In this document: in pieces, positions 5,797 to 52,621 of the stretch
Numbering within the stretch: the first letter of the stretch is position 1
Layout of the letters: every line of letters begins with the position of its first letter
NCBI GenBank assembly: GCA_005884455.1
Contig: VBCH01000208.1
Coordinates: forward strand, 1-62,158
DNA length: 62,158 nucleotides
Reading direction: 5' to 3'
Source of the DNA: Betaproteobacteria bacterium
Lineage (GTDB): Bacteria > Pseudomonadota > Gammaproteobacteria > Burkholderiales > SG8-39
Translations under genes and position numbers: made by a program
Notes under the pieces: model-generated
Told to the model about the DNA's origin: nothing
What the model saw: only the letters and a program-made list of their open reading frames with translations
Databases searched by the model: none

Positions 5797-6969
5797 TTGC
5801 CTGGGATGGACCGAAGGGCGCTCCTTGGGCATCGGATGAAATTCGGGGGGTGGGTGGCCACGGTTCTTGTCGTCGAGGACCGACCCGTCAATCTGCGGTT
5901 CGTTGCGACGCTGCTCCGGGACCGGGGGCATCGTTTGCTTGAAGCTCGGAGCGGCGAGGAAGCGCTGCGGATCGTTCGCGCCGAAAGCCCCGACCTGGTG
6001 ATCATCGACATACTCACGTCGGGCATGGACGGCTGTCAGTTCGTCCTCAATCTGCGCTCAGAGCCGAACTCGGTCCAGCCGCGGATCGTGTTTCGGGCCG
6101 CCGCTCACATCGCGGCCGAAGCCGAGGCATTGGCAACCACCTTTGGCGCGTCTTTCATTGCGAAGCCCGTCGACCCCGAGACGCTGCTAGCGGTCGTCGA
6201 CGCGGCTCTTTCCGGGCCGAGTGCACTCCCGATGGAGGCGCATTCACAGGATAAGTCCATCGACTCGTTCCTGCGCCCTATCGCCCGTAAGCTCCACCGG
6301 CATACGGCGAATCTCGAACGCCTCAACGCCCAGCTGGATCGTGGCATCGCCCAGCGCGACGCGCAGCTCGAAGTGGTGAGAGCGGCGCTGGACCAGGAGA
6401 TCAAGAAGCGGCTATTGGCGGAGCGGGAGCTGACGCAGGCAAACCTCCGCTTGAAAGACCAGGTCGTGCATGACGGGCTGACCGGCCTCCATAACCGCCG
6501 CTACCTCGAGGAATCGCTCGGTCGGGAAGAGAGCCGCGCCCGGCGCAGCGGCCTGCCCTTCGGCGTAATGATGATCGATATCGACAACTTCAAGCGCTTC
6601 AACGACACGCTCGGCCACGCCGCAGGAGATGCGGTGTTGCGTGCAATAGCCCAGTACATGCTGTCCGTTGCGCGGGGCGAGGATATCGTCTCCCGCTACG
6701 GCGGCGAAGAGTTCGTTCTGGTCATGGCTCCAGGCCTGCAGGGAACGGTCTCGGAGCGAGCTGAAAAGCTCCGCCGGGACGTGCAGGATCTCGAGATCGA
6801 GTACGAGGGCCGGCGAGTCGGACCCATCACGATATCCGTGGGCATCGCGATATTTCCCGACCACGGCGAGAGCGGGCAGGAGGTGCTGCGAGCCGCCGAC
6901 GCCGCCCTCTATCAAGCCAAGCGATCGGGGCGTAACTGCGTTGTGGTTGGGGACAAGGTGAAGGCTTGA
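5797..6969 (+). CDS. response-regulator diguanylate cyclase (REC-coiled coil-GGDEF)
   Basis: Receiver (VLVVEDRP, LVIIDILTSGMDG, AKP). GGDEF domain with the GGEEF active site. An RGED I-site-like RxxD lies 5 residues upstream. The ORF opens with TTG at 5797; in-frame ATGs at 5806 and 5836 are alternative starts. Confidence 0.88.
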   Translation: MPGMDRRALLGHRMKFGGWVATVLVVEDRPVNLRFVATLLRDRGHRLLEARSGEEALRIVRAESPDLVIIDILTSGMDGCQFVLNLRSEPNSVQPRIVFRAAAHIAAEAEALATTFGASFIAKPVDPETLLAVVDAALSGPSALPMEAHSQDKSIDSFLRPIARKLHRHTANLERLNAQLDRGIAQRDAQLEVVRAALDQEIKKRLLAERELTQANLRLKDQVVHDGLTGLHNRRYLEESLGREESRARRSGLPFGVMMIDIDNFKRFNDTLGHAAGDAVLRAIAQYMLSVARGEDIVSRYGGEEFVLVMAPGLQGTVSERAEKLRRDVQDLEIEYEGRRVGPITISVGIAIFPDHGESGQEVLRAADAALYQAKRSGRNCVVVGDKVKA

Positions 6970-6999
6970 TCGGCCGGCGCGAGGACGCGGCGCGCGAAG

Positions 7000-7500
7000 T
7001 CAGGCGCGGGGATCGTACGCGACGAAGTGGTAGCTGAAGCCTCCAACCTTGTCGAGAACGCGAGACTCGCGGGCGGCCTCGCGCCATTGTGAGCGGTCGA
7101 ACTCCGGAAAAAAAGCGTCGCCCTCGAAGTCGCGCTCGATCTCGGTCATATAGAGGCGGGAGGCGAGCGGAAGAGCGAGCGCGTAGATCTGCGCGCCGCC
7201 GATGACGAATGCGTCCTGAGGTTCGCGCACAGCTGCGATAGCGGCCTCGAGTGAATGGGCGGCGTGGCAGTCCGAGCGGGTCCAATCGGGGGAGCGGGTG
7301 ATCACGATGTTCTCTCGCCCCGCAAGGGGCCCGCCGATCGATTCAAATGTTCGGCGACCCATGATCACCGCGTGACCAAGCGTAAGTTGCCTGAAACGCC
7401 TCAAGTCCTCCGGGAGGTGCCAGGGCATGCGGTTGCGGTGGCCGATGACGCCGTTGCTCGCCACGGCGGCGATGATGACGACGCGCGACAAACCGGTCAT
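7000..7500 (-). CDS. folA: dihydrofolate reductase
   Basis: 166 aa. Contains VIGHRNRMPWHLPEDLRRFRQLTLGHAVIMGRRTFESIG, typical of type I DHFR. Confidence 0.93.
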   Translation of the reverse strand: MTGLSRVVIIAAVASNGVIGHRNRMPWHLPEDLRRFRQLTLGHAVIMGRRTFESIGGPLAGRENIVITRSPDWTRSDCHAAHSLEAAIAAVREPQDAFVIGGAQIYALALPLASRLYMTEIERDFEGDAFFPEFDRSQWREAARESRVLDKVGGFSYHFVAYDPRA

Positions 7501-7563
7501 TTCGGGTCGACAGGACGGGAGAGCAAGTTCACGATGCGCAAAACTGCGGCATTATAGCGGGCC

Positions 7564-9030
7564 ATGAAAATCGGGCTCGACTTCCCCCAGCGCTACTACC
7601 CGCGATCGTTTCTGAGCCTGCTGCTGCTCGCCTTCGCGCTCGTCGCTGCGCCGCTCGTCGTGGCTTTTTACAACGCTGCGGTGTATGTCGAGCAGCTTGC
7701 AGGTCAGAGCCAGACCGCGGTTTCTCAGGCGGCGCAAGCCTCCCGCGGCAGCCGGCTCCTGGTCGAACAAACCACGGCGCTCGAACGGGTGGTGCGCCAG
7801 TATCTCATCCTCGACGACGAGGAGCTCCTCAAGGATTACGCTCGGTTGAGAGCGAACTTCAAGGCGAACACCAGCGAGCTGTCCCTGCAGCCGCTCGACG
7901 AGCCGCAGCTGCAGGAGCTCAACAGCACGATCGACAAGGAGCAGGGGCTCTACGAACAGCTGCTCGGGAAACCGAAAACGACGGGCGAGAAGAAGGCGCT
8001 CGTGGAAGGCTACTTGGTGCTGTCGGGGCTGGCGCGGGACGTGCTCAATACGAGCAACGCCTTGATCGACCGCGAGGTGGAATCCATGCGACGCACCGGC
8101 GAACGCGCGCAGCGCATCCTCTGGCTGCAGCTCGCCGCAACGATCCCGCTCGGGATACTCCTTGCGGTCGGAGTCACGCTCCTCATCGCTAGACCGATCC
8201 GCCAGCTCGACCAAGCCATCCGGCGCCTCGGCGCCGGCGAGTTCGAGGGCGATATCCGGGTCGGCGGGCCGGCGGACCTGAAATACCTGGGGAGCCGGCT
8301 CGACTGGTTGCGACAACGGCTGATCGAACTCGAACAGCAAAAGCGCCTGTTCCTGCGCCACGTCTCACACGAGCTCAAGACGCCCCTGACGGCGCTTCGC
8401 GAAGGATCGGAGCTGCTGGTGGAGGGGACGGCCGGCTCGCTTTCGCCGGGCCAGCGCGAGATCGTCGAGATCCTCCGGCAAAAGAGCGTGCAATTGCAGC
8501 AGCTGATCGAGGGCCTTTTGAACTACCATCGAGCGCAGGAGAGCGTGGGGCGCCTGGAGGTGACGGCGGTGCGATTCGACCGGGTCGTGGAGCAGGTGCT
8601 CGACGATCACCGGCTCGCGGTCCAGGCTCGTGGCATCCGCGCCGACCTGCGGCTGGATCCAGTCATACTTCAGGCCGACGAGGAAAAATTGCGCGCAGTT
8701 GCGGCGAATCTGGTCTCCAATGCGATCAAATACTCGCCTGACGAGGGTATGATTTCGCTGGTGCTGCGAAGAGAGGGGGCTGAGGTAGTGTTCGACGTGA
8801 GAGACGCGGGTCCGGGAATTCCTCCCGAGGATCGCGACCGGATTTTCGACTGGTTCTATCAGGGCGAGGACATCCATCACGGCCGCGTGCGGGGCAGCGG
8901 TCTGGGGCTCGCGATCGCAAGGGAATTTGTGGTGGCTCACGACGGTCGCATCGAGGTCGTGAGCGATCGCGAAGGCGGCGCGCATTTCCGCGTCACGCTT
9001 GCGGCCGGGACTCCGGGTGCCGAGCCATGA
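7564..9030 (+). CDS. glrK: two-component sensor kinase, GlrK/QseE family
   Basis: Two TM segments, HAMP, H-box FLRHVSHELKTPLTALREGSELL, RQYLILDD periplasmic motif, and an HATPase C-terminus. These closely parallel E. coli GlrK as I recall it. The stop overlaps the next start (ATGA). Confidence 0.85.
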   Translation: MKIGLDFPQRYYPRSFLSLLLLAFALVAAPLVVAFYNAAVYVEQLAGQSQTAVSQAAQASRGSRLLVEQTTALERVVRQYLILDDEELLKDYARLRANFKANTSELSLQPLDEPQLQELNSTIDKEQGLYEQLLGKPKTTGEKKALVEGYLVLSGLARDVLNTSNALIDREVESMRRTGERAQRILWLQLAATIPLGILLAVGVTLLIARPIRQLDQAIRRLGAGEFEGDIRVGGPADLKYLGSRLDWLRQRLIELEQQKRLFLRHVSHELKTPLTALREGSELLVEGTAGSLSPGQREIVEILRQKSVQLQQLIEGLLNYHRAQESVGRLEVTAVRFDRVVEQVLDDHRLAVQARGIRADLRLDPVILQADEEKLRAVAANLVSNAIKYSPDEGMISLVLRREGAEVVFDVRDAGPGIPPEDRDRIFDWFYQGEDIHHGRVRGSGLGLAIAREFVVAHDGRIEVVSDREGGAHFRVTLAAGTPGAEP

Positions 9031-9533
9031 TCCGGATCGCCGCAATCCTCTGCAGCATCTCGCTCGCCGGGTGTGCCGCCTTATCCACTCCAGGTTCAGG
9101 TTCCGGAGGTTCGGGCGCCTCTTGGGCGCGCGAGAACCGGGAATCGCGGCAGGTCATCGAGCTGATCGCATACACCCAGAGAGTCGCGGCGCTGCAGGCG
9201 GATGAGCAGCAACGCGAATTGAACGCTTCGGCCCAGATGCTTTCCAAGGATCGCAGCGCCTACGGGCGGGTCCGGCTCGCGCTGCTGCTTGCGTTGCCTG
9301 GAACTGCGTTCAACGACGACACCCGGGCCGCGGGCCTGCTCGAGTCTCTCGCGGGCGCGGGAGCCTCCGAATCGGCGCCGGGCCCGATGCAGCAGTTTGC
9401 CGGACTGCTTTATGCCCAGATCAGCGAACGCTTGCGCGAGCAGCGCCGCACGGTCCAACTGAAGGAGCAGCTCGAGGCGCTGAAGGCGGTCGAGCGCAAT
9501 ATCATAGAGCGCGAGCAAGCGCGACCAAGATGA
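9027..9533 (+). CDS. lipoprotein, QseG/YfhG-like position and features
   Basis: Lipobox ISLAGC. Helical C-terminus (LKEQLEALKAVERNIIERE) resembling the YfhG tail. Sandwiched between the kinase and regulator genes with ATGA overlaps on both sides. Confidence 0.7.
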   Translation: MIRIAAILCSISLAGCAALSTPGSGSGGSGASWARENRESRQVIELIAYTQRVAALQADEQQRELNASAQMLSKDRSAYGRVRLALLLALPGTAFNDDTRAAGLLESLAGAGASESAPGPMQQFAGLLYAQISERLREQRRTVQLKEQLEALKAVERNIIEREQARPR

Positions 9534-10870
9534 GCACCATTCTCCTCGTCGACGACGATCCGGATATCCTGAAGCTCATTTCCCTGCGACTGACCGCCGC
9601 CGGCCACAGCGTCAAGGGCGCGGACAGCGGGGAGAAGGCGCTCGCCGTGCTCGCAGCTTCGCGACCTGAGCTCGTCATTACCGACCTCAAGATGGGCGGA
9701 ATGGACGGCTTGAGCTTGTTTGACGAGATCCGCAAGCAGGCGCCGACCCTTCCTGTCATCATCCTGACCGCGCATGGGACGATCCCCGAGGCGGTCGCCG
9801 CGACCCGCCGCGGGGTTTTCGGGTTTCAGTCCAAGCCGTTCGACGGGAAGCACCTGCTCGACCAGGTAGAACAGGCTCTGCGCCTTTCCGGAGTCGCACA
9901 GAGGGGGGGCGAGGAGGACTGGCGGCGCGACTTCGTGACGCAGAGCCCGAAAATGGAGAACGTGCTCCACCAGGCGCGCCTGGTTGCCCAGTCGGAGGCG
10001 AGCGTGTTCATCCAGGGCGCGAGCGGCACGGGAAAGGAGCTCCTCGCGCGCGCGATACACCGGGCAAGCCGCCGCTCGCAGGGACCCTTCGTGGCGGTCA
10101 ATTGCGCGGCGATCCCGGAAAATCTGCTCGAATCGGAATTGTTCGGCCACCGCAAGGGCTCGTTTACCGGGGCGACCTACGATCACAAGGGGCTCGTCCC
10201 CGCCGCCGACGGAGGGACGCTGTTCTTGGATGAAATCGGCGACATGCCTCTTGCTTTGCAGGCCAAGCTCCTGCGCGTGCTGCAGGACCGCGAAGTGCGT
10301 GCGGTCGGAGCGACTCAGGGAACGGCGGTCGACGTGCGCGTCATCTCTGCCACTCACCGCGACCTCGACGCGCAGATGAAAATGGGGCGGTTCCGCGAGG
10401 ATCTCTACTATCGACTGAACGTGGTCTCGCTCGCGCTCCCGCCCCTCTCCGAGCGGCGCGAAGACATCGTCCCTCTGGCGACCCATTACCTCAGAGTTAC
10501 CGCCGCGCGTTACCGAAAGGACGTCCAGGCAGTGGCTCCGGAGGGGCTTCAAACGCTCCTTGCGGCACCTTGGCCGGGCAACGTGCGGCAGCTTGTCAAC
10601 GTGATCGAACAGGCGGTTGCACTCTGCCCTTCGGGCGTCGTGCCGGCCTCGCTCATCCAGCAGGCGTTGAGGGAGGAGCCCGCGCAGCTTGCGTCGCTCG
10701 AGGAGGCGCGGGGAGCCTTCGAGCGCGAATACCTGGTTCGGATCCTGCGCATCACTGGCGGCAGCGTGACCCGGGCGGCGAAGCTCGCGCAGCGCAATCG
10801 CACCGAGTTCTACAAGCTGCTCGAGCGCCACAAGCTCGAGCCGAAGATGTTCAAGCCCGAAAAGGGCTGA
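9530..10870 (+). CDS. glrR: sigma-54-dependent response regulator, GlrR/QseF family
   Basis: Receiver ([30 protein letters not shown]). AAA+ domain with GASGTGKE, the GAFTGA-type loop (KGSFTGA) and ESELFGH. C-terminal HTH. The N-terminus closely matches E. coli GlrR as I recall it. Confidence 0.9.
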
Positions 10871-10904
10871 AACCCGACCGATCCACGCGCGGAATTCGTC
10901 GCGT

Positions 10905-10922
10905 TGTCGCTCCGGGGCGACA
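10905..10922 (+). promoter_or_regulatory. candidate enhancer (UAS) site, TGTC-N10-GACA palindrome
   Basis: TGTCGCTCCGGGGCGACA, with 7-bp arms TTGTCGC/GCGACAA spanning 10904-10923. About 165 nt upstream of the predicted sigma-54 start site. It matches the GlrR/QseF site consensus as I recall it. Confidence 0.6.
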
Positions 10923-10968
10923 ACAAATTCCCTTTCCCATCAGTTCGATTTTTGCCGCTCGCGGGAAA

Positions 10969-10988
10969 GCGTCGTTGACAAGCGACGC
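10969..10988 (+). promoter_or_regulatory. second candidate UAS, GCGTCG-N8-CGACGC palindrome (GTC-N10-GAC core)
   Basis: Perfect 6-bp inverted arms, about 100 nt upstream of the predicted sigma-54 start site. It matches only the inner GTC...GAC of the consensus. Confidence 0.45.
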
Positions 10989-11050
10989 ATTGAGAATCCT
11001 TGGGATCCTTGGTTCCCCTTAACTCGTTGAGTCAGCGCAAGAACTTATGT

Positions 11051-11066
11051 TGGCACGGGGATTGCA
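11051..11066 (+). promoter_or_regulatory. sigma-54 (-24/-12) promoter
   Basis: TGGCACGGGGATTGCA is an exact TGGCAC-N5-TTGCW. It is the only such match I found on either strand. It sits in a 274-nt intergenic region, about 80 nt before the ATG at 11145 and directly downstream of the sigma-54 activator gene. Confidence 0.8.
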
Positions 11067-11144
11067 CACATGCCAGCGATCCCGCCGCGATACGGGTGGC
11101 GGTAGAGACAATTTGCTGAAGCGAGCGCGCTCCAATACGGATAA

Positions 11145-11627
11145 ATGCGGATCGATACTCTCTTCGCAGGACGGGCGGTTCCGGTCCTGATTGCGGGTCT
11201 GATCGGCGTCGCAGCCGTCACGGGCTGGTTGCACAGCGGGTTCTCGCCCCATCAGGGCGACGCGCAGTCGGCAGACGCCGGGCGCAAACCCGTCCCGGCA
11301 AATGGCTGTGCCTTGTGCGGGACGGTCGAGTCCATCCGGACCGTCGAGGTGCGCGATGAAGCGGGCGGTGCCGGAGCGGCGGCAGGCGGACCCGGCGGCG
11401 CCGGCGACCAGGCGCCAGGGGGAGGGAGCGCCGCAGTCACGCTCTTCGGGACAGGAGGCGCGATCGCCGGGAGCGAGATCGAGAAGAACATGAAGAAGCG
11501 CTATGCATATCGAGTGACGGTGCGCATGGACGACGGCTCCTTTCGCACCATTTCTTTGTCGAGCCCGCCCACATTCGCGGTAGGCGAGAAGGTCCGGGTG
11601 GTAGAAGGCAAGCTCGTGCGCACGTGA
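11145..11627 (+). CDS. membrane-anchored glycine-zipper (SlyB/17-kDa-antigen-like) protein
   Basis: N-terminal TM segment, CALCGTVESI motif, Gly-rich zipper region, then EIEKNMKKRYAYRVTVRMDDGSFRT. This pattern is typical of glycine-zipper 2TM envelope proteins of Betaproteobacteria. Weak SD. Confidence 0.72.
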   Translation: MRIDTLFAGRAVPVLIAGLIGVAAVTGWLHSGFSPHQGDAQSADAGRKPVPANGCALCGTVESIRTVEVRDEAGGAGAAAGGPGGAGDQAPGGGSAAVTLFGTGGAIAGSEIEKNMKKRYAYRVTVRMDDGSFRTISLSSPPTFAVGEKVRVVEGKLVRT

Positions 11628-11676
11628 AAAGGCAGGTATAAGAAAACACTACTTGTTCAAGTGAGGAGAAAAGAAA

Positions 11677-12084
11677 ATGCCAAGCCTTAAGCGGACCGTC
11701 GCACGCGCTCTTGTCGTCAGCTTGTGCGCCCTAGGTCTGCCGATTCCAGCCGTGCAAGCCGAGCTGGTCGCGACCGATCGAGTCGAGGCGACCCGCCAGG
11801 GCGGGTCTTCGGGGCGCGAGTTCCTGCGCTCGCTTTTTGAGCGGGCCGACGTCCGGGCCGCGCTCGAACGGCAGGGCGTGAGCGCCGACGAAGCGAAAGC
11901 CCGCGTCAACGCCATGAGCGATGACGAAGTCGAGCAGCTCGCTGTGCGGTTCGACTCGTTTCCCGCTGCGGGCAACGGGTTCGAGAGCGCGCTGTGGTTT
12001 GGGTTTCTGGTGTTCATCATCCTTCTCGTAACGGATATTCTGGGCTTCACCAAGGTTTTCAGCTTCACCCGGCCGGCCAAGTGA
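11677..12084 (+). CDS. PA2779-family protein (secreted, C-terminal TM anchor)
   Basis: Signal peptide ...AVQA. Motifs ALERQGVSADEAKARVNAMSDDEVEQLA. C-terminal TM FLVFIILLVTDILGFTKVF. SD GAGGAG upstream. Paired with the following peptidase, as in the PA2778/PA2779 families. Confidence 0.8.
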   Translation: MPSLKRTVARALVVSLCALGLPIPAVQAELVATDRVEATRQGGSSGREFLRSLFERADVRAALERQGVSADEAKARVNAMSDDEVEQLAVRFDSFPAAGNGFESALWFGFLVFIILLVTDILGFTKVFSFTRPAK

Positions 12085-13070
12085 TCCTCCCCTCTCGACC
12101 GCGCCGGCGTGTCGCCCGCCGCCTTACGGCGGCGGGCATCTTTCTTCTCGGGCTTGCGGGCTGCGCCACGCCGCAGCTGCAGGCCCTGGTGGGGAGCCGT
12201 TCCGCTGGGATTCCGCAGCGCGCGGAGCTCGACGCCGTCCCGTTCTTTTCACAGGAGGACTATCAATGCGGTCCGGCCGCTCTTGCGATGGTGCTCAGCG
12301 CGGGAGGCAAGGCGATCGAGCCGGAGGCGCTGCGGCCGCAGGTCTATCTTCCCGATCGGCACGGGAGCCTGCAGATCGAGATGATCGCGGCGGCACGTCG
12401 CAACGGTTTTGTCGCAATCGAGCTCGCTCCGAACCTCTCGGATCTCCTGGCCGAGATCGCCGCAGGAAATCCAGTGGTCGTGCTGCAGAACCTCGCCGTG
12501 GACTGGTATCCGGCTTGGCATTACGCTGTGGCGATCGGCTATGACCTCAAGGCCCAGCGCATCACTCTGCGCTCGGGCACGGAGCGGCGCCTCCAGATGC
12601 CGCTCGATACCTTCGAGCATACCTGGCGGCGCAGCGGCTATTGGGCGATGCTCGCCCTGCCGCCGCGGCGCCTGCCGGCGAGCGTGGCTGCGGGCGACTA
12701 TCTGAGCGCGGTGGCTCGGCTCGAAAAAACCGGCCGGGCCGCGTCGGCGCGGGACGCCTACGAAAGAGCGCTCGAGCGCTGGCCCGACGATCTTACGGCG
12801 CTCATAGGGTTGGGAAACGCGGCCCATCGCGACGGCGACTTGGAAGCGGCGGAACAGGCGTTCCGGCGGGCCACTCTGGCTCATCCGCAGTCGGCCGCCG
12901 CGCACAACAATCTGGCCCAAACGCTCGAGGAACTCGACCGTCATGACGAAGCATTGGCCGAAGCGCGTGCGGCGGTCGGGCTCGGCGGGCCGCTCGAGGA
13001 CGTCTCGATGCGCACGCTGGACGCCATCGTCTCGCACGCTGGCCGGGGCGAGCAGGAATGGAACCGATGA
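12081..13070 (+). CDS. PA2778-family C39-like cysteine peptidase lipoprotein with TPR repeats
   Basis: GTG at 12081 overlaps the upstream stop (GTGA). Lipobox LLGLAGC. C39-type QEDYQCGPAALAMVL (catalytic Cys) and WHYAVAIGYD (His). C-terminal TPR-like repeats. The listed ORF start at 11994 is probably an over-extension. Confidence 0.8.
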   Translation: MILPSRPRRRVARRLTAAGIFLLGLAGCATPQLQALVGSRSAGIPQRAELDAVPFFSQEDYQCGPAALAMVLSAGGKAIEPEALRPQVYLPDRHGSLQIEMIAAARRNGFVAIELAPNLSDLLAEIAAGNPVVVLQNLAVDWYPAWHYAVAIGYDLKAQRITLRSGTERRLQMPLDTFEHTWRRSGYWAMLALPPRRLPASVAAGDYLSAVARLEKTGRAASARDAYERALERWPDDLTALIGLGNAAHRDGDLEAAEQAFRRATLAHPQSAAAHNNLAQTLEELDRHDEALAEARAAVGLGGPLEDVSMRTLDAIVSHAGRGEQEWNR

Positions 13071-13094
13071 TCCGGGCGACGCCGAGGTGAGTAC

Positions 13095-14102
13095 GTGCGA
13101 ACTCTCATGGCCATGCATCGTGGGACACCCACGCACAGCCTCTGGAGCGGCCTGCGGCAGATCTTCACGCACGGCATTATCACCGCGCTCGCCGTCGCCA
13201 TCGCGTTTTCGCTCCCGGGTATCGCGAACTACATCCTCAACGAATGGTGGCCCGAGGTCGAGAGCAATGCCAATCTCCTGCTCGCGACCGAGATCGCCCT
13301 GGCGTCAGTCCTCGCGCTCGCGTTCAATCTGGCCAAGATCGCCTGGGACAGCAGACAGGGCGTCCGCACCGCACGCCTCGCGTCCCTGATCTATGCGCGC
13401 AGCGCCGGCGCCGGCTGGTGGTCGCGGCGGCGCGAGCGCGCCCTGATAAGGCAGCTTCCGGCCCCGCGCGACGCTTTCGTCCTGACCCTCACCGGATACG
13501 ACACCTTCGTCGCCGACGACAGCTTGTTGCGGGGCGTAATCGGAAAGGCGTACGAGATCCGCGTGATGCTGGTCAACCCGGTCGGAAAAGCGCTGCGGGA
13601 GCGGGCGGAATCCCTGCCGCCCGAGATCACGGTGCTCACGCTGCACACCGAGATCGAAGCGGCAATCGGGTATCTCTCGGCGCTGCGCAAGTTCGGCAAG
13701 ATGGTGAAGCTCAAGTTCTACGACGAGGAGCCGTTCTGGAAGCTGATCGTGCTCGGCGACTACGTCTGGGTGCAGCATTGCCACAGCGGTTTCGCGGTCA
13801 AGCAGCAGCCCGAATTCGTGTTCGCCCTGCAGCAGCGCGAGCCTCGCCACGGCCTCTTCGTGCCCTTCTACATGGTTTTCCTCAATCAGTGGAATGATCC
13901 GCGTCATCCCGAGTACGATTTCGACACGAACGAGCTGGTCTACCGCGACGCTTCCGGAAGGGAGACCGGGCGGACCGCTCTCGGCGTGCCGATCAACGGC
14001 GCAACGATGCCGCTGCCCTCGCCCCGGGTGCCCGGCGCGGCGGCTGACTCCCTTGCGGCGCTGCTGCGCCGCCCCGAACCCGAGCGCACGGCAGCACTCT
14101 AG
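13095..14102 (+). CDS. hypothetical 2TM membrane protein with uncharacterised cytoplasmic domain
   Basis: GTG start 5-7 nt after SD GAGGTGAG. Two clear TM helices, then a ~230-aa domain (EIRVMLVNP..., [24 protein letters not shown]..., FLNQWNDP). The pattern vaguely resembles non-catalytic PLD-like/DUF5919-type domains. It starts 24 nt after the peptidase gene. Confidence 0.65.
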
Positions 14103-14893
14103 ACTGCGATCGGGGCCTTGATCGCGGGGTGCGGGTCGTACGCCTCGAGGGTGAAATCCTCGTAGCGGAAACCGAAAACGTCCCTTATCGCCGGATTGAG
14201 CCGCATGCGCGGCAGGGGCCGCGGCGCGCGCGCGAGCTGCTCTCTCGCCTGCTCCAGGTGGTTGAGGTAGAGGTGCGCATCGCCGAAGGTATGCACGAAT
14301 TCGCCCGGTTTCAGGTTGCAGACCTGAGACACCATCAGCGTGAGCAGCGCATACGAGGCGATGTTGAACGGCACGCCGAGGAAAATGTCGGCGCTGCGCT
14401 GATACATCTGGCAGGAAAGGCGTTCGTCCGCCACATAGAACTGAAACAATACGTGGCACGGGGGCAGCTTCATCTTGTCGATCTCGGCGGGATTCCAGGC
14501 AGTCACGATGTGGCGGCGCGAATCCGGCCGCGTCTTGATCGAATTCACGACTTGCGCGATTTGATCGATCGCAGCCCCTTCAGGCGAGGGCCAGCTGCGC
14601 CATTGCGAGCCGTACACCGGCCCGAGCTCGCCGTTCGCGTCGGCCCACTCGTCCCAGATGGTGACGCCGCGCTCCCGCAGCCAGCGGACGTTGGTATCGC
14701 CTCTGAGAAACCAGAGCAGCTCGTAGATGATCGATTTGAGATGGACTTTCTTGGTGGTCAGCAGCGGAAAGCCGGCCGCCAGGTCGAATCGCATCTGCCA
14801 GCCGAACGCGGACAGCGTGCCGGTGCCCGTCCGGTCGGTCTTTCTGTGACCGTGTTCGAGCACGTGGCGCATGAGATCAAGGTATGGCTTCAT
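14099..14893 (-). CDS. thyA: thymidylate synthase
   Basis: 264 aa from [15 protein letters not shown]. Motifs [38 protein letters not shown]. The longer listed ORF (to 15082) is an upstream over-extension. Confidence 0.95.
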
Positions 14894-14903
14894 CGAGGCG
14901 AAA

Positions 14904-15302
14904 TCATAGCGCGTTACCCGGGCGAGTTGAACGCGCGCGCGGCGGGATCGCGCGCCAAGCCCACACGACCGCCAGGGTAAACGCGCAATACGCGATCGCG
15001 AACACCCACTCGGGAAGATTATAGTAGAGCAGCCACGCCAGCCAGCGGCCGATAAAGCTGCGCTCCTCGCGCCCGGTCGCACGCAGTGTGTCCTCCCAGC
15101 TCGTCAGCGGACAGGTGACACCGAGCAGGGCCTCGGCGGTGACAAACACGATCGCGGCGACATGCGTGATACGAAACGTGCGGTTGCGCACCCAGCCCCA
15201 TCGGCTCGCTCCGGCGAGAATCAGGGCAAACCCGCCGACCACGAACAACACGAACAAGACATGCACGACGAGAACTGCGTCGGCGAGCCATGTGGAATGC
15301 AT
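14904..15302 (-). CDS. DUF2784-family membrane protein
   Basis: 132 aa, four TM segments, CPLTSWE motif typical of DUF2784. Tightly packed between the sulfurtransferase gene and thyA. Confidence 0.75.
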
Positions 15303-15308
15303 CGGGCC

Positions 15309-16172
15309 TCAGCGCTCCCGTGCCTTCGGCTCTCCCGATTCGACTCGCCGCGAGGGATCGGCGCACCATTCGCTCCAGGAACCGGGATAGAGGCGCGACC
15401 CGCGCAGGCCGGCGACCTCCATGGCGAGGAGGTTGTGGCAGGCGGACACGCCCGAACCGCAGTAGCTCACGACTTCTTGCGGGTCGTTGGCGCCGAGCAC
15501 GGCGCGGAACTCCCGTTGGAGTTCTTCGGGTGATTTGAAACGGCCGCTTGCGTCGAGGTTGTCGCGGAAATACCGGTTGCGCGCGCCGGGGATGCGGCCT
15601 CCGACGGGATCCAGGGTTTCATTCTGTCCTCGATACCGGTCGGGCGCTCGAGCATCGAGTAGCACCGCGCCTTCGTCGTCGAGGTGCGAGCCGACAAAAT
15701 CTGCATTTACCCAGTTGCTTCCCGGCCTTCCGGAAAAACTCGCGGATTGCGGTTGTGGAATCTCGGCGCTCTGCGGACGTCCTTCCGCGATCCACTGGGG
15801 CCAGCCACCGTCGAGCACGGCAACGGGCAGATGACCCAGCCAGCGCAGCAGCCACCAGAGCCTCGCCGCGACCATGCCCCCTTGAGCGTCGTACGCGATG
15901 ACCTGCCTTCTCGAATCGACGCCCGCCCGCCCCAGCTTCTCCATGAGCGCATCCGGATCGGGAAGCGGATGCCGGCCGTTGGTTCCGGTCTTCGGAGCGG
16001 AGAGATCCTCGTTCAGATGCAGGAAGCGCGCGCCCGGGATATGCGACGCTGCGTACTCGGCGCGTCCTCGCACCGGATCCGCGAGATCGTGGCGGCAGTC
16101 GAATACGACCCAATCGGGATCGTCGAGATGTTGCGCGAGGATTTCGGTGCCGACGAGCGCGGTGAGAATCAT
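15309..16172 (-). CDS. tandem-rhodanese sulfurtransferase (3-mercaptopyruvate/thiosulfate type)
   Basis: Two rhodanese modules. HIPGA motif. Active-site loop YCGSGVSACH. Confidence 0.88.
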   Translation of the reverse strand: MILTALVGTEILAQHLDDPDWVVFDCRHDLADPVRGRAEYAASHIPGARFLHLNEDLSAPKTGTNGRHPLPDPDALMEKLGRAGVDSRRQVIAYDAQGGMVAARLWWLLRWLGHLPVAVLDGGWPQWIAEGRPQSAEIPQPQSASFSGRPGSNWVNADFVGSHLDDEGAVLLDARAPDRYRGQNETLDPVGGRIPGARNRYFRDNLDASGRFKSPEELQREFRAVLGANDPQEVVSYCGSGVSACHNLLAMEVAGLRGSRLYPGSWSEWCADPSRRVESGEPKARER

Positions 16173-16207
16173 GCCGCTATCTTACTCGCGGCTGGTGCCG
16201 AGAAACT

Positions 16208-17311
16208 CTAGGGGTGCCCGGCCAGCCCGCGCTTGATGTGCTCGTGGAAGTGCATCATCCCGTCTTCCATCGGCGACTGGTAAGGGCCGGCTTCGTTCTC
16301 GCCGCGCTCCCACAGGGCGCGCCGTCCACGGTCCATGCGCCTGGCGATCTCGTCGTCCTCGATCGCGGTTTCCCGGTAGGCGGCCTGCTCGGCCTCGACG
16401 AATTCGCGCTCGAACAAGACGATGTCCTCGGGATAGTAGAACTCGACGACGTTCGTGGTGTGCGTCGGTGAGCGCGGCAGCAGCGTGCTCACCACGAGCA
16501 CATGCGGATACCACTCGAGCATGACGTTCGGGTAATAGAGGAACCAGATCGCGCCCTGCTTGGCCGTTTTTCCGCCCATGTAGCGGGTGAGAGCCTCGTG
16601 CCACTTGGCGTAAGTCGGCGTCCCCGGCTTCGCGAACCCGTCCTTCACGCCCACTACCTGTGCCGAATAGGTTTCGGCGATGTCCCACTTGAGATCGTCG
16701 CAAGTGACGAAGTTGCCCAGACCCGGAGGGTAGGGGACCACATGGTAGTCCTCGAGGTACACCTCGATGAAGGTCTTCCAGTTCTGTTCGAACTCCATGA
16801 TCTCGACGCGGTCGAGCATGTAGCCGGAAAAATCGAAGTCATCGGCGCTCGCGAATCCGGCGAGGTCCTTTGCCACGTCGCGCTTGCCCGCGAACAGCAT
16901 TCCGCGCCAGTTCTGCAGCGGAGTCTTGCCGAGGTTGAGGCAGGGATTTTCGGGGAAGTGCGGCGCGCCGAGCAGCTCGCCCTTCATGTCGTAAGTCCAG
17001 CGGTGCAGCGGGCAGACGATGTTCTGCGCGTTGCCGCGGCCTTCCAGCAGGATCGACTGCCTGTGGCGGCAGACGTTCGACAGGAGCTCGATGCCGTTCG
17101 CGTTCCTGACCAGGACCTTGCCGTGGTCCATCCAGGCGAGCGTATGGTAATCGCCCGCGTTCGGGACCATCAGCTCGTGCCCGACGTAATCGGGACCGTT
17201 TGCGAAGAGCAGCTTTTGCTCCAGCTCGAAGACCTGCGGGTCGAAGTACCAGGAAACGGGAAGCTGCGATGCGTTGGGTTTGAGTCTTCGCGAACTGGGC
17301 AAGTCGGACAT
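16208..17311 (-). CDS. Rieske [2Fe-2S] non-heme-iron oxygenase, alpha-subunit-like
   Basis: Rieske motif CRHR-x16-CPLHRW. The C-terminal catalytic domain has EDYH-type iron ligands. No partner reductase or ferredoxin gene is adjacent. Confidence 0.85.
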   Translation of the reverse strand: MSDLPSSRRLKPNASQLPVSWYFDPQVFELEQKLLFANGPDYVGHELMVPNAGDYHTLAWMDHGKVLVRNANGIELLSNVCRHRQSILLEGRGNAQNIVCPLHRWTYDMKGELLGAPHFPENPCLNLGKTPLQNWRGMLFAGKRDVAKDLAGFASADDFDFSGYMLDRVEIMEFEQNWKTFIEVYLEDYHVVPYPPGLGNFVTCDDLKWDIAETYSAQVVGVKDGFAKPGTPTYAKWHEALTRYMGGKTAKQGAIWFLYYPNVMLEWYPHVLVVSTLLPRSPTHTTNVVEFYYPEDIVLFEREFVEAEQAAYRETAIEDDEIARRMDRGRRALWERGENEAGPYQSPMEDGMMHFHEHIKRGLAGHP

Positions 17312-52163: not shown

Positions 52164-52621
52164 TGGCCGCCCTTTCTGATGGTCCAGCAGTTCAAATTGT
52201 TGGTGTATCCGGCTTGATCCATCGGCGAGCCCGGAGCCACCGCCGTGGCACGACCGTTGCCTTCGTTGATCGTGTAAGTGATGCCCACCAAGGTGGCGTC
52301 GGTGCCGTCGGCCTGGATCGTGTACTGGGTGGCCGTGAGCACCGGGCAAGTGATGGTGAAGTACTTAAGGGCGGGGATCGGGACGCTGGAGCCCGCGATG
52401 CACGGAGCGAGCACGGGGGCGCCGGGGGTGGTGTACGAGCGGTTGTCCTGGAAGTACTGCTCCATCTTCGTCCTCATGGCGAGCAGATTGGAGGTCGCTT
52501 CCTGGAGCTTGCCGCGCCTCACATAGTCGGAATAGTTCGGGATGGCGATCGCCGCCAGGATCGCAATGATCGCGACCGTGACCATCAATTCAATCAGGGT
52601 GAAACCGTTTGGGCGCTGCAT
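52157..52621 (-). CDS. pilE: PilE-like type IV pilin (first gene of the cluster)
   Basis: NG/FTLIELMVTVAIIAILAAIAIPNYSDYVRRGKLQEA...MEQYFQD, with a C-terminal Cys pair (CWTIRKGGQC). SD AAGGGGG. The stop overlaps the fimT-like start. Confidence 0.8.
   Translation of the reverse strand: MQRPNGFTLIELMVTVAIIAILAAIAIPNYSDYVRRGKLQEATSNLLAMRTKMEQYFQDNRSYTTPGAPVLAPCIAGSSVPIPALKYFTITCPVLTATQYTIQADGTDATLVGITYTINEGNGRATAVAPGSPMDQAGYTNNLNCWTIRKGGQC

Follow-up and report, generated by a model that had tools for sequence, protein, structure and literature searches.

In E. coli the two-component system GlrK(QseE)–QseG–GlrR(QseF) is encoded in the order kinase, lipoprotein, regulator, and its target glmY is a small RNA gene located upstream of glrK. 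The enterobacterial genes glmY and glmZ carry GlrR sites (TGTCN10GACA) upstream of an IHF-dependent sigma-54 promoter; at E. coli glmY these sites are located >100 bp upstream of the promoter, and the sigma-54 promoter needs IHF (PMC3045617). Here we describe a locus of a soil betaproteobacterium (contig VBCH01000208.1, positions 1 to 62,158; this whole stretch of 62 kb is called the window in the following) in which relatives of GlrK and GlrR are encoded upstream of four co-directional genes, named g1 to g4. The second gene, g2, encodes a protein of the PA2779 family and g3 a lipoprotein cysteine peptidase of the PA2778 family; the names PA2779 and PA2778 are used below for members of the two families in general. 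As in E. coli, the sensor genes follow the order kinase–lipoprotein–regulator, and TGTCN10GACA-type boxes are found upstream of a -24/-12 promoter with an IHF-like site between boxes and promoter, a likeness that holds here at the sequence level. The presumed target differs: at this locus it is a protein-coding envelope operon downstream of the glrR-like gene, whereas in E. coli it is a small RNA gene upstream of glrK, and there are two boxes here versus three at E. coli glmY.

A second point of comparison are the peptidase-containing ABC transporters (PCATs) that export bacteriocins and ribosomally synthesized and post-translationally modified peptides (RiPPs), for example ComA and LahT. Like g3, they have a papain-like fold with a Gln/Cys/His/Asp site, and they are encoded together with a small protein bearing a Gly-Gly, Gly-Ala or Ala-Gly motif after Ala and an amphipathic LSxxELxxIxGG-like helix. 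However, PA2778 appears as a free-standing periplasmic lipoprotein fused to tetratricopeptide repeats (TPRs), whereas the PCAT peptidase is a cytoplasmic domain of an ABC transporter. PA2779 is predicted to be Sec-exported and membrane-anchored, unlike PCAT substrates, and its motif is located ∼33 residues from the C-terminus in front of a transmembrane (TM) helix, with Pro at position -4, rather than at the end of an N-terminal leader. In P. aeruginosa, PA2779 and PA2778 are adjacent like the pair in the window, which differs in lying inside a GlrR/sigma-54 operon with two extra genes. An earlier note on this DNA, made from its letters, had taken the two for a conserved pair with no assigned function; indeed both families are catalogued by NCBIfam and Pfam with no function assigned, and the literature that we searched contains passing mentions only and yielded no biochemical data on activity or substrate of PA2778.

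Our best explanation of the locus, which we hold to be about evenly poised between right and wrong, is a GlrR/sigma-54-induced operon whose core would be a peptidase of the periplasm together with a membrane-anchored substrate dedicated to it. The phosphorylated GlrR-like regulator would bind two TGTCG-N8-CGACA-type boxes ∼145 and ∼80 bp upstream of the -24/-12 promoter and, together with an IHF-like bend, would activate transcription of g1–g2–g3–g4. PA2779 would be exported via its cleavable signal peptide and held in the inner membrane by its C-terminal helix, with ∼65 residues in the periplasm. PA2778, a lipoprotein of the periplasm whose Gln/Cys/His/Asp site is intact and whose TPR arm would bind peptides, would cut it at P-A-[G/A]-[G/A] on the membrane surface, parting the periplasmic domain from a conserved membrane stub. 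Owing to a leaky terminator within the first 70 nt of the PA2778 gene, there would be far more substrate than enzyme, and g1 and g4 would be lineage-specific additions to the regulon. An enzyme with a dedicated substrate is favoured by the near-obligate linkage of the two genes, the intact active site, the invariant motif, the duplicated partner genes and the excess expression of PA2779.

The PA2779–PA2778 pair

The g3 product matches the NCBIfam model C39_PA2778_fam (NF033920) with 337 bits (cutoff 150), residues 78–329 of the long open reading frame (ORF) covering profile positions 1–252 of 255. Both Pfam models of the C39 peptidases are also above their cutoffs (Peptidase_C39_2, PF13529, 44.3 bits versus 24; Peptidase_C39, PF03412, 29.7 bits versus 22), as are several TPR models, which agrees with the family proposed for this gene in the earlier note. 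The sequence features named there (lipobox, QEDYQCGPAAL, WHYAVAIGYD, TPRs, the signal peptide of g2, the Gly-rich stretch of g1 and the TM or hydrophobic segments of g1, g2 and g4) were all found in the translations. For g3 they comprise the lipobox LAGC (Cys28), Gln58, Cys63 in QEDYQCGPAAL, His147 in WHYAVAIGYD, Asp155, three TPRs and a capping helix. An AlphaFold2 (AF2) model based on 106 sequences reached a predicted local distance difference test (pLDDT) score of 94.2 and a predicted template modelling (pTM) score of 0.88; it displays a C39-like domain and, after residue 204, seven helices that correspond to the three TPRs plus the cap. The best fold match of the model in the PDB was 3ERV, an uncharacterised C39-like peptidase (E 5e-7), the rest of the list being TPR proteins, and a sequence search of the PDB with g3 yielded TPR proteins only. 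The g3 product has no ABC or TM domains, and no transporter gene is present in the operon.

Conservation of the catalytic residues was determined in a motif-independent search, which gave 907 clusters (50% identity, E ≤ 1e-30), since the loci of our genome scan (see below) were found by the Cys and His motifs themselves and are unsuited to this test. Among the 150 best representatives (39–58% identity, one 71%-identical fragment aside), Cys63 is present in 150/150 and His147 in 151/151, so that the expected conservation of both in orthologues was borne out; Gln58 is kept in 147/150, Asp155 in 133/151 and the lipobox Cys in 144/148. An Asp at position +2 after the lipobox Cys was never seen among these representatives, and by the E. 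coli rule PA2778 is therefore predicted to be anchored in the outer membrane.

Rather than cutting a protein, the C39-like domain might act on a different envelope component, for instance by hydrolysing a stem peptide of peptidoglycan or a glycan, with PA2779 functionally separate or only regulatory. There is a precedent in an archaeal C39-like glycosidase (PMC13642728), the region around the Cys motif of g3 gave a weak PHROGs match to an endolysin family (E 1e-3), and the best fold match 3ERV is itself uncharacterised. We nevertheless consider this explanation unlikely: it has to accommodate the conservation of the full Gln/Cys/His/Asp set and the scores of both Pfam C39 models above threshold, and it gives no reason why PA2778 is almost always paired with a protein that has a Gly-Gly-type motif.

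This pairing emerged from a scan of one genome per species, based on the Cys/His motifs, in which at least 594 loci with a relative were found; the best 80 of these were kept (L001–L080). A PA2779-family gene is located immediately upstream of the peptidase gene in 77/80 loci, and two of the three exceptions lie at contig edges (77/78 assessable loci). In three loci a second PA2779 copy accompanies a single peptidase gene. These duplicates are arranged in tandem or flank the peptidase gene: L060 (9051–9497 and 9545–9955), L062 (9000–9446 and 9599–9910) and L043 (1580–2743 and 3705–4070). According to greedy ORF clustering, all neighbours other than the pair vary between clades; the clustering is noisy owing to antisense ORFs in high-GC DNA and was used only for the variability of neighbours beyond the pair. 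Inspected by eye, representatives of the neighbours look like housekeeping genes. In short, the pair is universal, the sensor genes and g1 are clade-specific, and g4 is accessory.

The neighbourhoods also bear on a published suggestion. In a TraDIS screen (sequencing of transposon insertion sites) with P. aeruginosa having an active type VI secretion system (T6SS), PA2778 appeared among putative toxin candidates, located upstream of small genes with fewer transposon insertions (preprint 10.1101/733030). It is this candidate listing, without follow-up there, that speaks for PA2778 as a secreted type VI toxin with the neighbouring small protein as immunity factor. We found no T6SS genes near the pair on inspection of the 80 loci, and the idea was rejected as very improbable chiefly on the conserved lipobox: the Cys kept in 144/148 representatives means Sec/Lol export to the producer's own envelope, unlike T6SS cargo. 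Moreover, the PA2779 gene is located ahead of that for the peptidase, has a high expression level and encodes a conserved Gly-Gly-type motif.

The g2 product belongs, as proposed in the earlier note, to the PA2779 family, with 107.7 bits for PA2779_fam (NF033919, cutoff 40) and 82.5 bits for DUF6627 (PF20332, cutoff 27); comparison with PDB sequences gave chance-level matches only. Behind a signal peptide that ends in AVQA, it has ∼65 periplasmic residues, the motif P-A-A-G, a TM helix and, last, a basic tail. In an alignment of 81 sequences the family shows a signal peptide usually ending in A-x-A, followed by a conserved mature N-terminus, [E/G]-[L/M]-[V/I]-x-T-[D/E]. After this comes a variable stretch and then a conserved helix, R-V-x-A-[L/M]-[T/S]-D-x-E-[V/A/I]-x-x-[L/I/V]-A-G-[K/R]-[L/I]-D-x-L. 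Directly before the TM helix the motif P-A-[G/A]-[G/A] is found, with Pro in 81/81 and Ala in 79/81 sequences: PAGG occurs 61 times, PAAG 9 times (window included), PAGA 9 times and PVGG twice. The motif is followed by 22–38 residues, which form a hydrophobic helix, in many cases with a conserved TDILGFTKVFPFT segment after it, and have about two K/R among the last eight. Two subtypes of the C-terminus can be distinguished, a long one with a conserved TDILGFTKVFPFT[RK] after the hydrophobic core and a short, W-rich one (...VWWIWFRR). Conservation of the long tail suggests that it makes its own interaction, in the membrane or on the cytoplasmic side.

Where could such a protein be cut? The earlier note had speculated on RQGG/SSG shortly after the signal peptide. 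This site was rejected, as it falls in the variable stretch and is not conserved even in the closest relatives: the protein of L001, whose peptidase is 90% identical, has RQDFSG. Characterised C39 domains cut after GG, GA or GS and need hydrophobic residues at -4, -7 and -12, with Val, Leu or Ile required at -4 (PMC6363468). The P-A-[G/A]-[G/A] motif offers small residues at -1/-2 and Ala at -3, as in double-glycine sites. The preceding helix, L-[TS]-x-x-E-[VAI]-x-x-[LIV]-x-[GA], is similar to the consensus of leaders, LSxxELxxIxGG, but ends nine residues before P-A-G-G. Positioned at the membrane surface, P-A-[GA]-[GA] would be the best cleavage candidate in the family.

Sensor genes and promoter architecture

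The sensor proteins were compared with those of the E. coli K-12 glrR–qseG–glrK–glmY region. The kinase is 33% identical to GlrK over its full length (473 residues, E 2e-66), the periplasmic part included. The regulator is 57% identical to GlrR from end to end, with an identical helix-turn-helix (HTH, recognition-helix) stretch; its top NCBIfam match is GlrR (NF011695) with 605 bits, below the equivalog cutoff of 763 but ahead of NtrC with 416 bits. Judged by these alignments, the sensor is a true GlrK/GlrR relative. The stop and start codons of the kinase, lipoprotein and regulator genes overlap. The lipoprotein between the two has no detectable similarity to E. coli QseG (BLASTP E 9.8), gave no Pfam or NCBIfam match and is conserved only within the closest clade. 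Of the QseE/G/F-like sensor described in the earlier note, kinase and regulator are thus upheld, while the middle gene resembles qseG only in its position and in the lipobox of its product.

Two boxes, an IHF-like site and a -24/-12 promoter are located in the 275-nt spacer that separates the regulator gene from g1 (Table 1). The promoter is the sole exact match to TGGCAC-N5-TTGCW in the 62-kb window, with 0.02 expected from dinucleotide shuffles, and the start codon of g1 is located 79 nt past it. The distal box matches the GlrR consensus TGTCN10GACA (PMC3045617). When the window was aligned with seven species-level genomes, the boxes, the IHF-like site, whose core bases are conserved across all eight, and the promoter turned out to be essentially the only conserved columns of the spacer. 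The proposal that the upstream sensor controls the operon via sigma-54 is supported by the GlrR identity of the regulator and by these footprinted elements, and the regulatory half of our explanation can be called well supported at the sequence level; the regulator would be expected to bind the boxes, and transcription to read through the operon. A second sigma-54-like site with one mismatch to the consensus (TGGCACGACCGTTGCC) was noticed in the window at 52246–52261. No GlmY and no other Rfam family scored above threshold in an Rfam scan of 6500–15500. One sub-threshold hit, archaeal snoRNA PyrR206 at 12847–12906 inside the TPR coding region (30 bits versus a gathering score of 46, E 0.041), almost certainly arose by chance.

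Among the 80 loci, kinase, middle lipoprotein and regulator genes are found in the closest clade only, namely in seven loci (L003, L004, L006–L010) with contigs reaching upstream. Gene g1 is present in the same seven plus L001 and L002, and the sensor genes and g1 are found on public contigs of this clade as well. The clade (L001–L010) has peptidase identities of 67–90% and the folA…thyA synteny of the window. The earlier note had taken a lack of co-occurrence of the trio with GlrK/GlrR-like genes in other genomes to speak against its reading; adjacency proved to be lineage-specific, being confined to this one clade. Its picture of a self-contained sigma-54 module survives in part: the module is not a general unit, but the same cis-architecture is found again in a second clade, whose loci have no sensor genes beside them.

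This second occurrence concerns L018, L023 and L024, none of which has a sensor gene within about 10 kb. In L023, two boxes (TGTCGCCTGCCGGCGACA and CGTCGTCACACGGCGACA) 65 nt apart are followed by TGGCACGCTCGTTGC directly upstream of PA2779–PA2778–g4. Two boxes with an exact or near-exact sigma-54 promoter also precede the operon lipoprotein–X–PA2779–PA2778–g4 in L018 and L024, and the box-to-box spacing is 65–66 nt in all three loci. The L018 (8276–9524) and L024 (from 8284) operons open with a DUF3568-like lipoprotein just below the Pfam threshold, which together with a secreted protein without family match takes the place of g1. Loci with two boxes and a sigma-54 promoter thus come from two clades, and in both they support the view that a GlrR-type activator controls the pair directly.

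Exact TGTCG-N8-CGACA boxes occur 20 times in 1.21 Mb of loci, and 15 of these 20 are located ≤800 nt upstream of PA2779. The core GTCG-N8-CGAC was found ≤300 nt upstream of PA2779 in 16/72 loci, against a background of 0.0185 per 300 nt. A third clade (L025, L028, L030, L034, L038, L039, L043, L045, L057, L059) has a single exact box 55–80 nt ahead of the PA2779 start, beside a TTGACG -35-like hexamer and without a sigma-54 promoter. In a fourth clade (L063, L068, L075, L078, L080) AGTCG-N8-CGACC occupies a similar position, beside a sigma-70-like -35 hexamer and again without a sigma-54 promoter. A search for sigma-54 promoters immediately upstream of PA2779 in other clades returned L023 only, and a sigma-54 reading of the single-box promoters of the third clade was ruled out by spacing. 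These single-box cases are not accounted for by a GlrR-type regulator, since activators of sigma-54 cannot work at a sigma-70 promoter. In L034, L057 and L038 a GGAAC-N16-CGTC-like sequence between the box and the PA2779 start was noticed by eye; it resembles an extracytoplasmic function (ECF, sigma-E-type) promoter, and ECF-like promoters would also fit an envelope-stress regulon.

One may ask whether the pair in the window belongs to the sigma-54 operon at all. Gene g1 could be the real GlrR/sigma-54 target, with PA2779–PA2778(–g4) as an independent, separately transcribed unit between folA and thyA. The clade-specific occurrence of g1 and the sensor would fit, the pair being found in many contexts; the 49-nt spacer between g1 and g2 is AT-rich and has room for a promoter, and sigma-70-like promoters appear to express the pair in other clades. 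We assign this arrangement a low probability. In L023, L018 and L024 two boxes and a sigma-54 promoter are placed upstream of PA2779–PA2778–g4 operons that lack g1, which makes the pair itself a target of the architecture. In addition, a terminator scan found no terminator-like site in the intergenic gaps of the operon, the g1–g2 gap included, and a promoter scan found no sigma-70-like promoter in 7000–15500.

Probable unequal expression and the relation of the two proteins

A terminator-like hairpin is located within the signal-peptide codons of the PA2778 gene in the window (-33.7 kcal/mol, z = -3.2; Table 1). The criterion for related elements was a hairpin with a folding energy of -12 kcal/mol or lower and four or more T within 9 nt behind it; such elements were found at the PA2779–PA2778 junction in 44/77 loci (57%), compared to 14/300 (4.7%) random 125-nt segments from the same loci. 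The 5′ end of the hairpin lies 1–39 nt after the PA2779 stop codon. The junction hairpins comprise 39 distinct sequences, and forty have at least nine uninterrupted base pairs; CG/GC swaps occur at most stem positions, while the peptides encoded by the region differ between clades. The hairpin is thus conserved in structure more than in sequence, with compensatory changes in the stem. Several of the elements are textbook intrinsic terminators, for example that of L080 (AAAACGCCCGCGCAATCGCGGGCGTTTTTTTTC). This suggests a leaky terminator or attenuator that keeps PA2779 well above PA2778. In precursor-peptide operons, a hairpin after the precursor gene is a known means to set the precursor above the enzyme. 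Independent support for an excess of PA2779 comes from P. stutzeri, where the PA2779-family gene belongs to a set of 39 genes whose expression ranks in the top 3% under all four conditions tested (PMC10155442).

An excess of this kind helps to weigh a different relation between the two proteins, in which PA2779 is a membrane-anchored partner (adaptor, docking site or inhibitor) and the TPR arm of PA2778 picks other envelope proteins for cleavage. The quality-control proteases NlpI–Prc and BepA serve as a comparison. High PA2779 expression and a terminator that would lower PA2778 fit a substrate excess better than a 1:1 complex, the invariant P-A-[GA]-[GA] is hard to explain for a mere anchor, and three loci have duplicated PA2779 beside a single peptidase gene. 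On the other hand, the gene linkage is equally compatible with a partner or a substrate, Pro at -4 departs from the known C39 recognition, the conserved PA2779 tail and TM region suggest more than a cleavable anchor, the TPR domain is conserved, and the lipobox +2 residue predicts outer-membrane anchoring of PA2778. We take the partner role seriously but think it doubtful on balance.

Several observations weigh against the GlrR-controlled enzyme–substrate pair that we propose. On the regulatory side, the gene-level linkage to GlrK/GlrR is limited to one clade, and most other clades have no box or a single box beside a sigma-70-like promoter. As to the cleavage site, PA2779 has Pro at position -4 throughout, and its hydrophobic residues are located at -5, -8, -12 and -15; moreover, the window itself has PAAG rather than PAGG. 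A separate function of PA2779 in the membrane is suggested by its conserved tail on the cytoplasmic side (TDILGFTKVFPFT). PA2778 is predicted to be located in the outer membrane, far from a juxtamembrane site at the inner membrane. Finally, the C39-like archaeal protein with Q-C-H residues has glycosidase activity and none on double-glycine peptides (PMC13642728). What we infer for the pair, i.e. the enzyme–substrate relation, the cleavage position and a physiological role in envelope stress or remodelling, is to be read with these points in mind.

The C-terminus of PA2779 can also be compared with the signals of dedicated sorting systems. The substrates of sortase (LPXTG), rhombosortase (GlyGly-CTERM) and exosortase (PEP-CTERM) share with PA2779 a tripartite C-terminus, here L-P-A-G-G, a hydrophobic helix and a basic tail, and in dedicated systems a processing enzyme is encoded beside its single target, as the cysteine peptidase PA2778 is beside its presumed one. 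The resemblance draws on general knowledge of those systems and on inspection of the motif, and we treat it as a lead only. PA2778 belongs to none of the sortase, rhombosortase and exosortase families, and the PA2779 segment past the TM core is strongly conserved (TDILGFTKVFPFT), unlike typical sorting signals. There is, in our estimation, a rather small chance that the PA2779 C-terminus is a new sorting signal and PA2778 its dedicated sortase-like cysteine transpeptidase, which after cleavage at the Gly-Gly-type motif would not merely release the abundant 65-residue helical domain but transfer it covalently onto an envelope component such as peptidoglycan or a lipid. If true, many beta- and gammaproteobacteria, including Pseudomonas, would have an envelope tether or coat that is inducible by GlrK/GlrR.

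Locus layout and accessory genes

The four genes are all encoded on the + strand, with gaps of 49, -4 and 24 nt in the ORF list. This matches exactly the layout given in the earlier note (49 nt, a GTGA overlap, 24 nt), and the gap sizes bear out the operon-like packing. The start codon of g3 is GTG, sharing GTGA with the stop of g2. Independent gene calls on near-identical public contigs likewise give g3 as 329 aa with a 4-nt overlap with the DUF6627 gene, and g4 has a length of 335 aa also in the independent call on a public contig (P0121).

Table 1. Coordinates of the sensor genes, regulatory elements and operon genes in the window
Feature	Position	Strand	Remarks
GlrK-like sensor histidine kinase	7564..9030	+	488 aa; HAMP, HisKA and HATPase_c domains
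Middle lipoprotein	9027..9533	+	168 aa; lipobox SLAGC; qseG position between kinase and regulator
GlrR-like sigma-54-dependent response regulator	9530..10870	+	446 aa; from NCBIfam and E. coli GlrR comparison
Distal GlrR-type box TGTCGCTCCGGGGCGACA	10905..10922		only exact TGTC-N10-GACA in the window; kept in 8 genomes, flanks diverged
Proximal box CGTCGTTGACAAGCGACG	10970..10987		inverted repeat 65 nt downstream of distal box
IHF-like site	11020..11032	-	reverse strand ACTCAACGAGTTA versus consensus WATCAANNNNTTR, one mismatch; putative function
Predicted sigma-54 (-24/-12) promoter TGGCACGGGGATTGCA	11051..11066	+	conserved in 8 genomes
g1	11145-11627	+	small membrane or periplasmic protein, 160 aa
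g2	11677-12084	+	PA2779-family protein, 135 aa
Codons for F-P-A-A-G (residues 95-99)	11959..11973	+	window form of family-wide L-P-A-G-G; candidate cleavage site
g3	12081-13070	+	PA2778-family lipoprotein cysteine peptidase, 329 aa
Terminator-like element	12114..12147	+	10-bp all-G/C hairpin GCCCGCCGCC-TTAC-GGCGGCGGGC, then ATCTTTCTTC
g4	13095-14102	+	orphan protein, 335 aa

The first product, g1, has an N-terminal hydrophobic segment, a CxxCG motif, a degenerate glycine-zipper (Gly-rich) region and a conserved C-terminal region. It reached the threshold of none of the glycine-zipper models and gave no Pfam match at E ≤ 0.1; PRK11280 was matched with E 0.011 only. However, its homologues P0501 and P0505 (65–68% identity) pass PF05433 with 25.1 and 24.8 bits (threshold 24.2), homologues are named SlyB or glycine zipper 2TM in their sources, and the Gly-rich segment of g1 aligns with theirs. 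No lipobox Cys was found in the N-terminus of g1 or of the aligned homologues. By homology, g1 is a sub-threshold relative of the glycine-zipper-2TM proteins; the name SlyB-like glycine-zipper protein used in the earlier note fits its homologues and is a loose label for g1 itself, which lacks a lipobox and stays below the hidden Markov model (HMM) threshold. From SlyB/YcfJ-type glycine-zipper 2TM proteins it differs by the CxxCG motif, the N-terminal hydrophobic segment and the conserved C-terminal region.

The last product, g4, consists of two N-terminal TM helices and a domain of ∼250 residues that is Arg-rich on the membrane-proximal side. By its charge distribution this C-terminal domain is probably cytoplasmic, which does not fit the description of the operon as all-envelope. 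Sequence and profile searches against Pfam, NCBIfam, PADLOC, PHROGs and PDB sequences yielded nothing significant for g4; its 529 homologues include no Pfam domain and no informative name, and an AF2 model with 37 homologues was unusable (pLDDT 39.7). Gene g4 is present in 10/80 loci: seven of the ten loci of the close clade, and L018, L023 and L024 of the second clade (57–59% identity), where it is located directly downstream of the peptidase gene. In L006, L007 and L010 it is absent and thyA directly follows the peptidase gene, i.e. g4 is a presence/absence polymorphism.

The flanks of the locus (5797–7500 and 14099–17311) contain a response-regulator–GGDEF gene and folA (- strand) on one side and, on the other, thyA followed by DUF2784, rhodanese and Rieske oxygenase genes (all - strand). 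The order is identical on public contigs of the same clade, which places the operon between folA and thyA. At 14099–14102, g4 and the convergent thyA have a palindromic CTAG in common, so that the stop codon of one overlaps that of the other.

The PA2779–PA2778 pair is widespread: a relative occurs in at least 594 species-level genomes, P. aeruginosa is one of the carriers, and the relatives fall into 907 clusters (50% identity, E ≤ 1e-30). The locus in the window provides a regulatory handle on it: according to the literature searched, this would be a first candidate protein-coding target operon of the GlrK/GlrR family outside enterobacterial glmY. P-A-G-G before the TM helix is a conserved and specific candidate for the cleavage motif and is open to mutation, and from the putative terminator among the signal-peptide codons one would expect the two genes to be expressed unequally. 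If the enzyme–substrate relation is true, double-glycine-type processing would reach from the cytoplasmic domains of ABC exporters to a periplasmic lipoprotein and a membrane-anchored protein.

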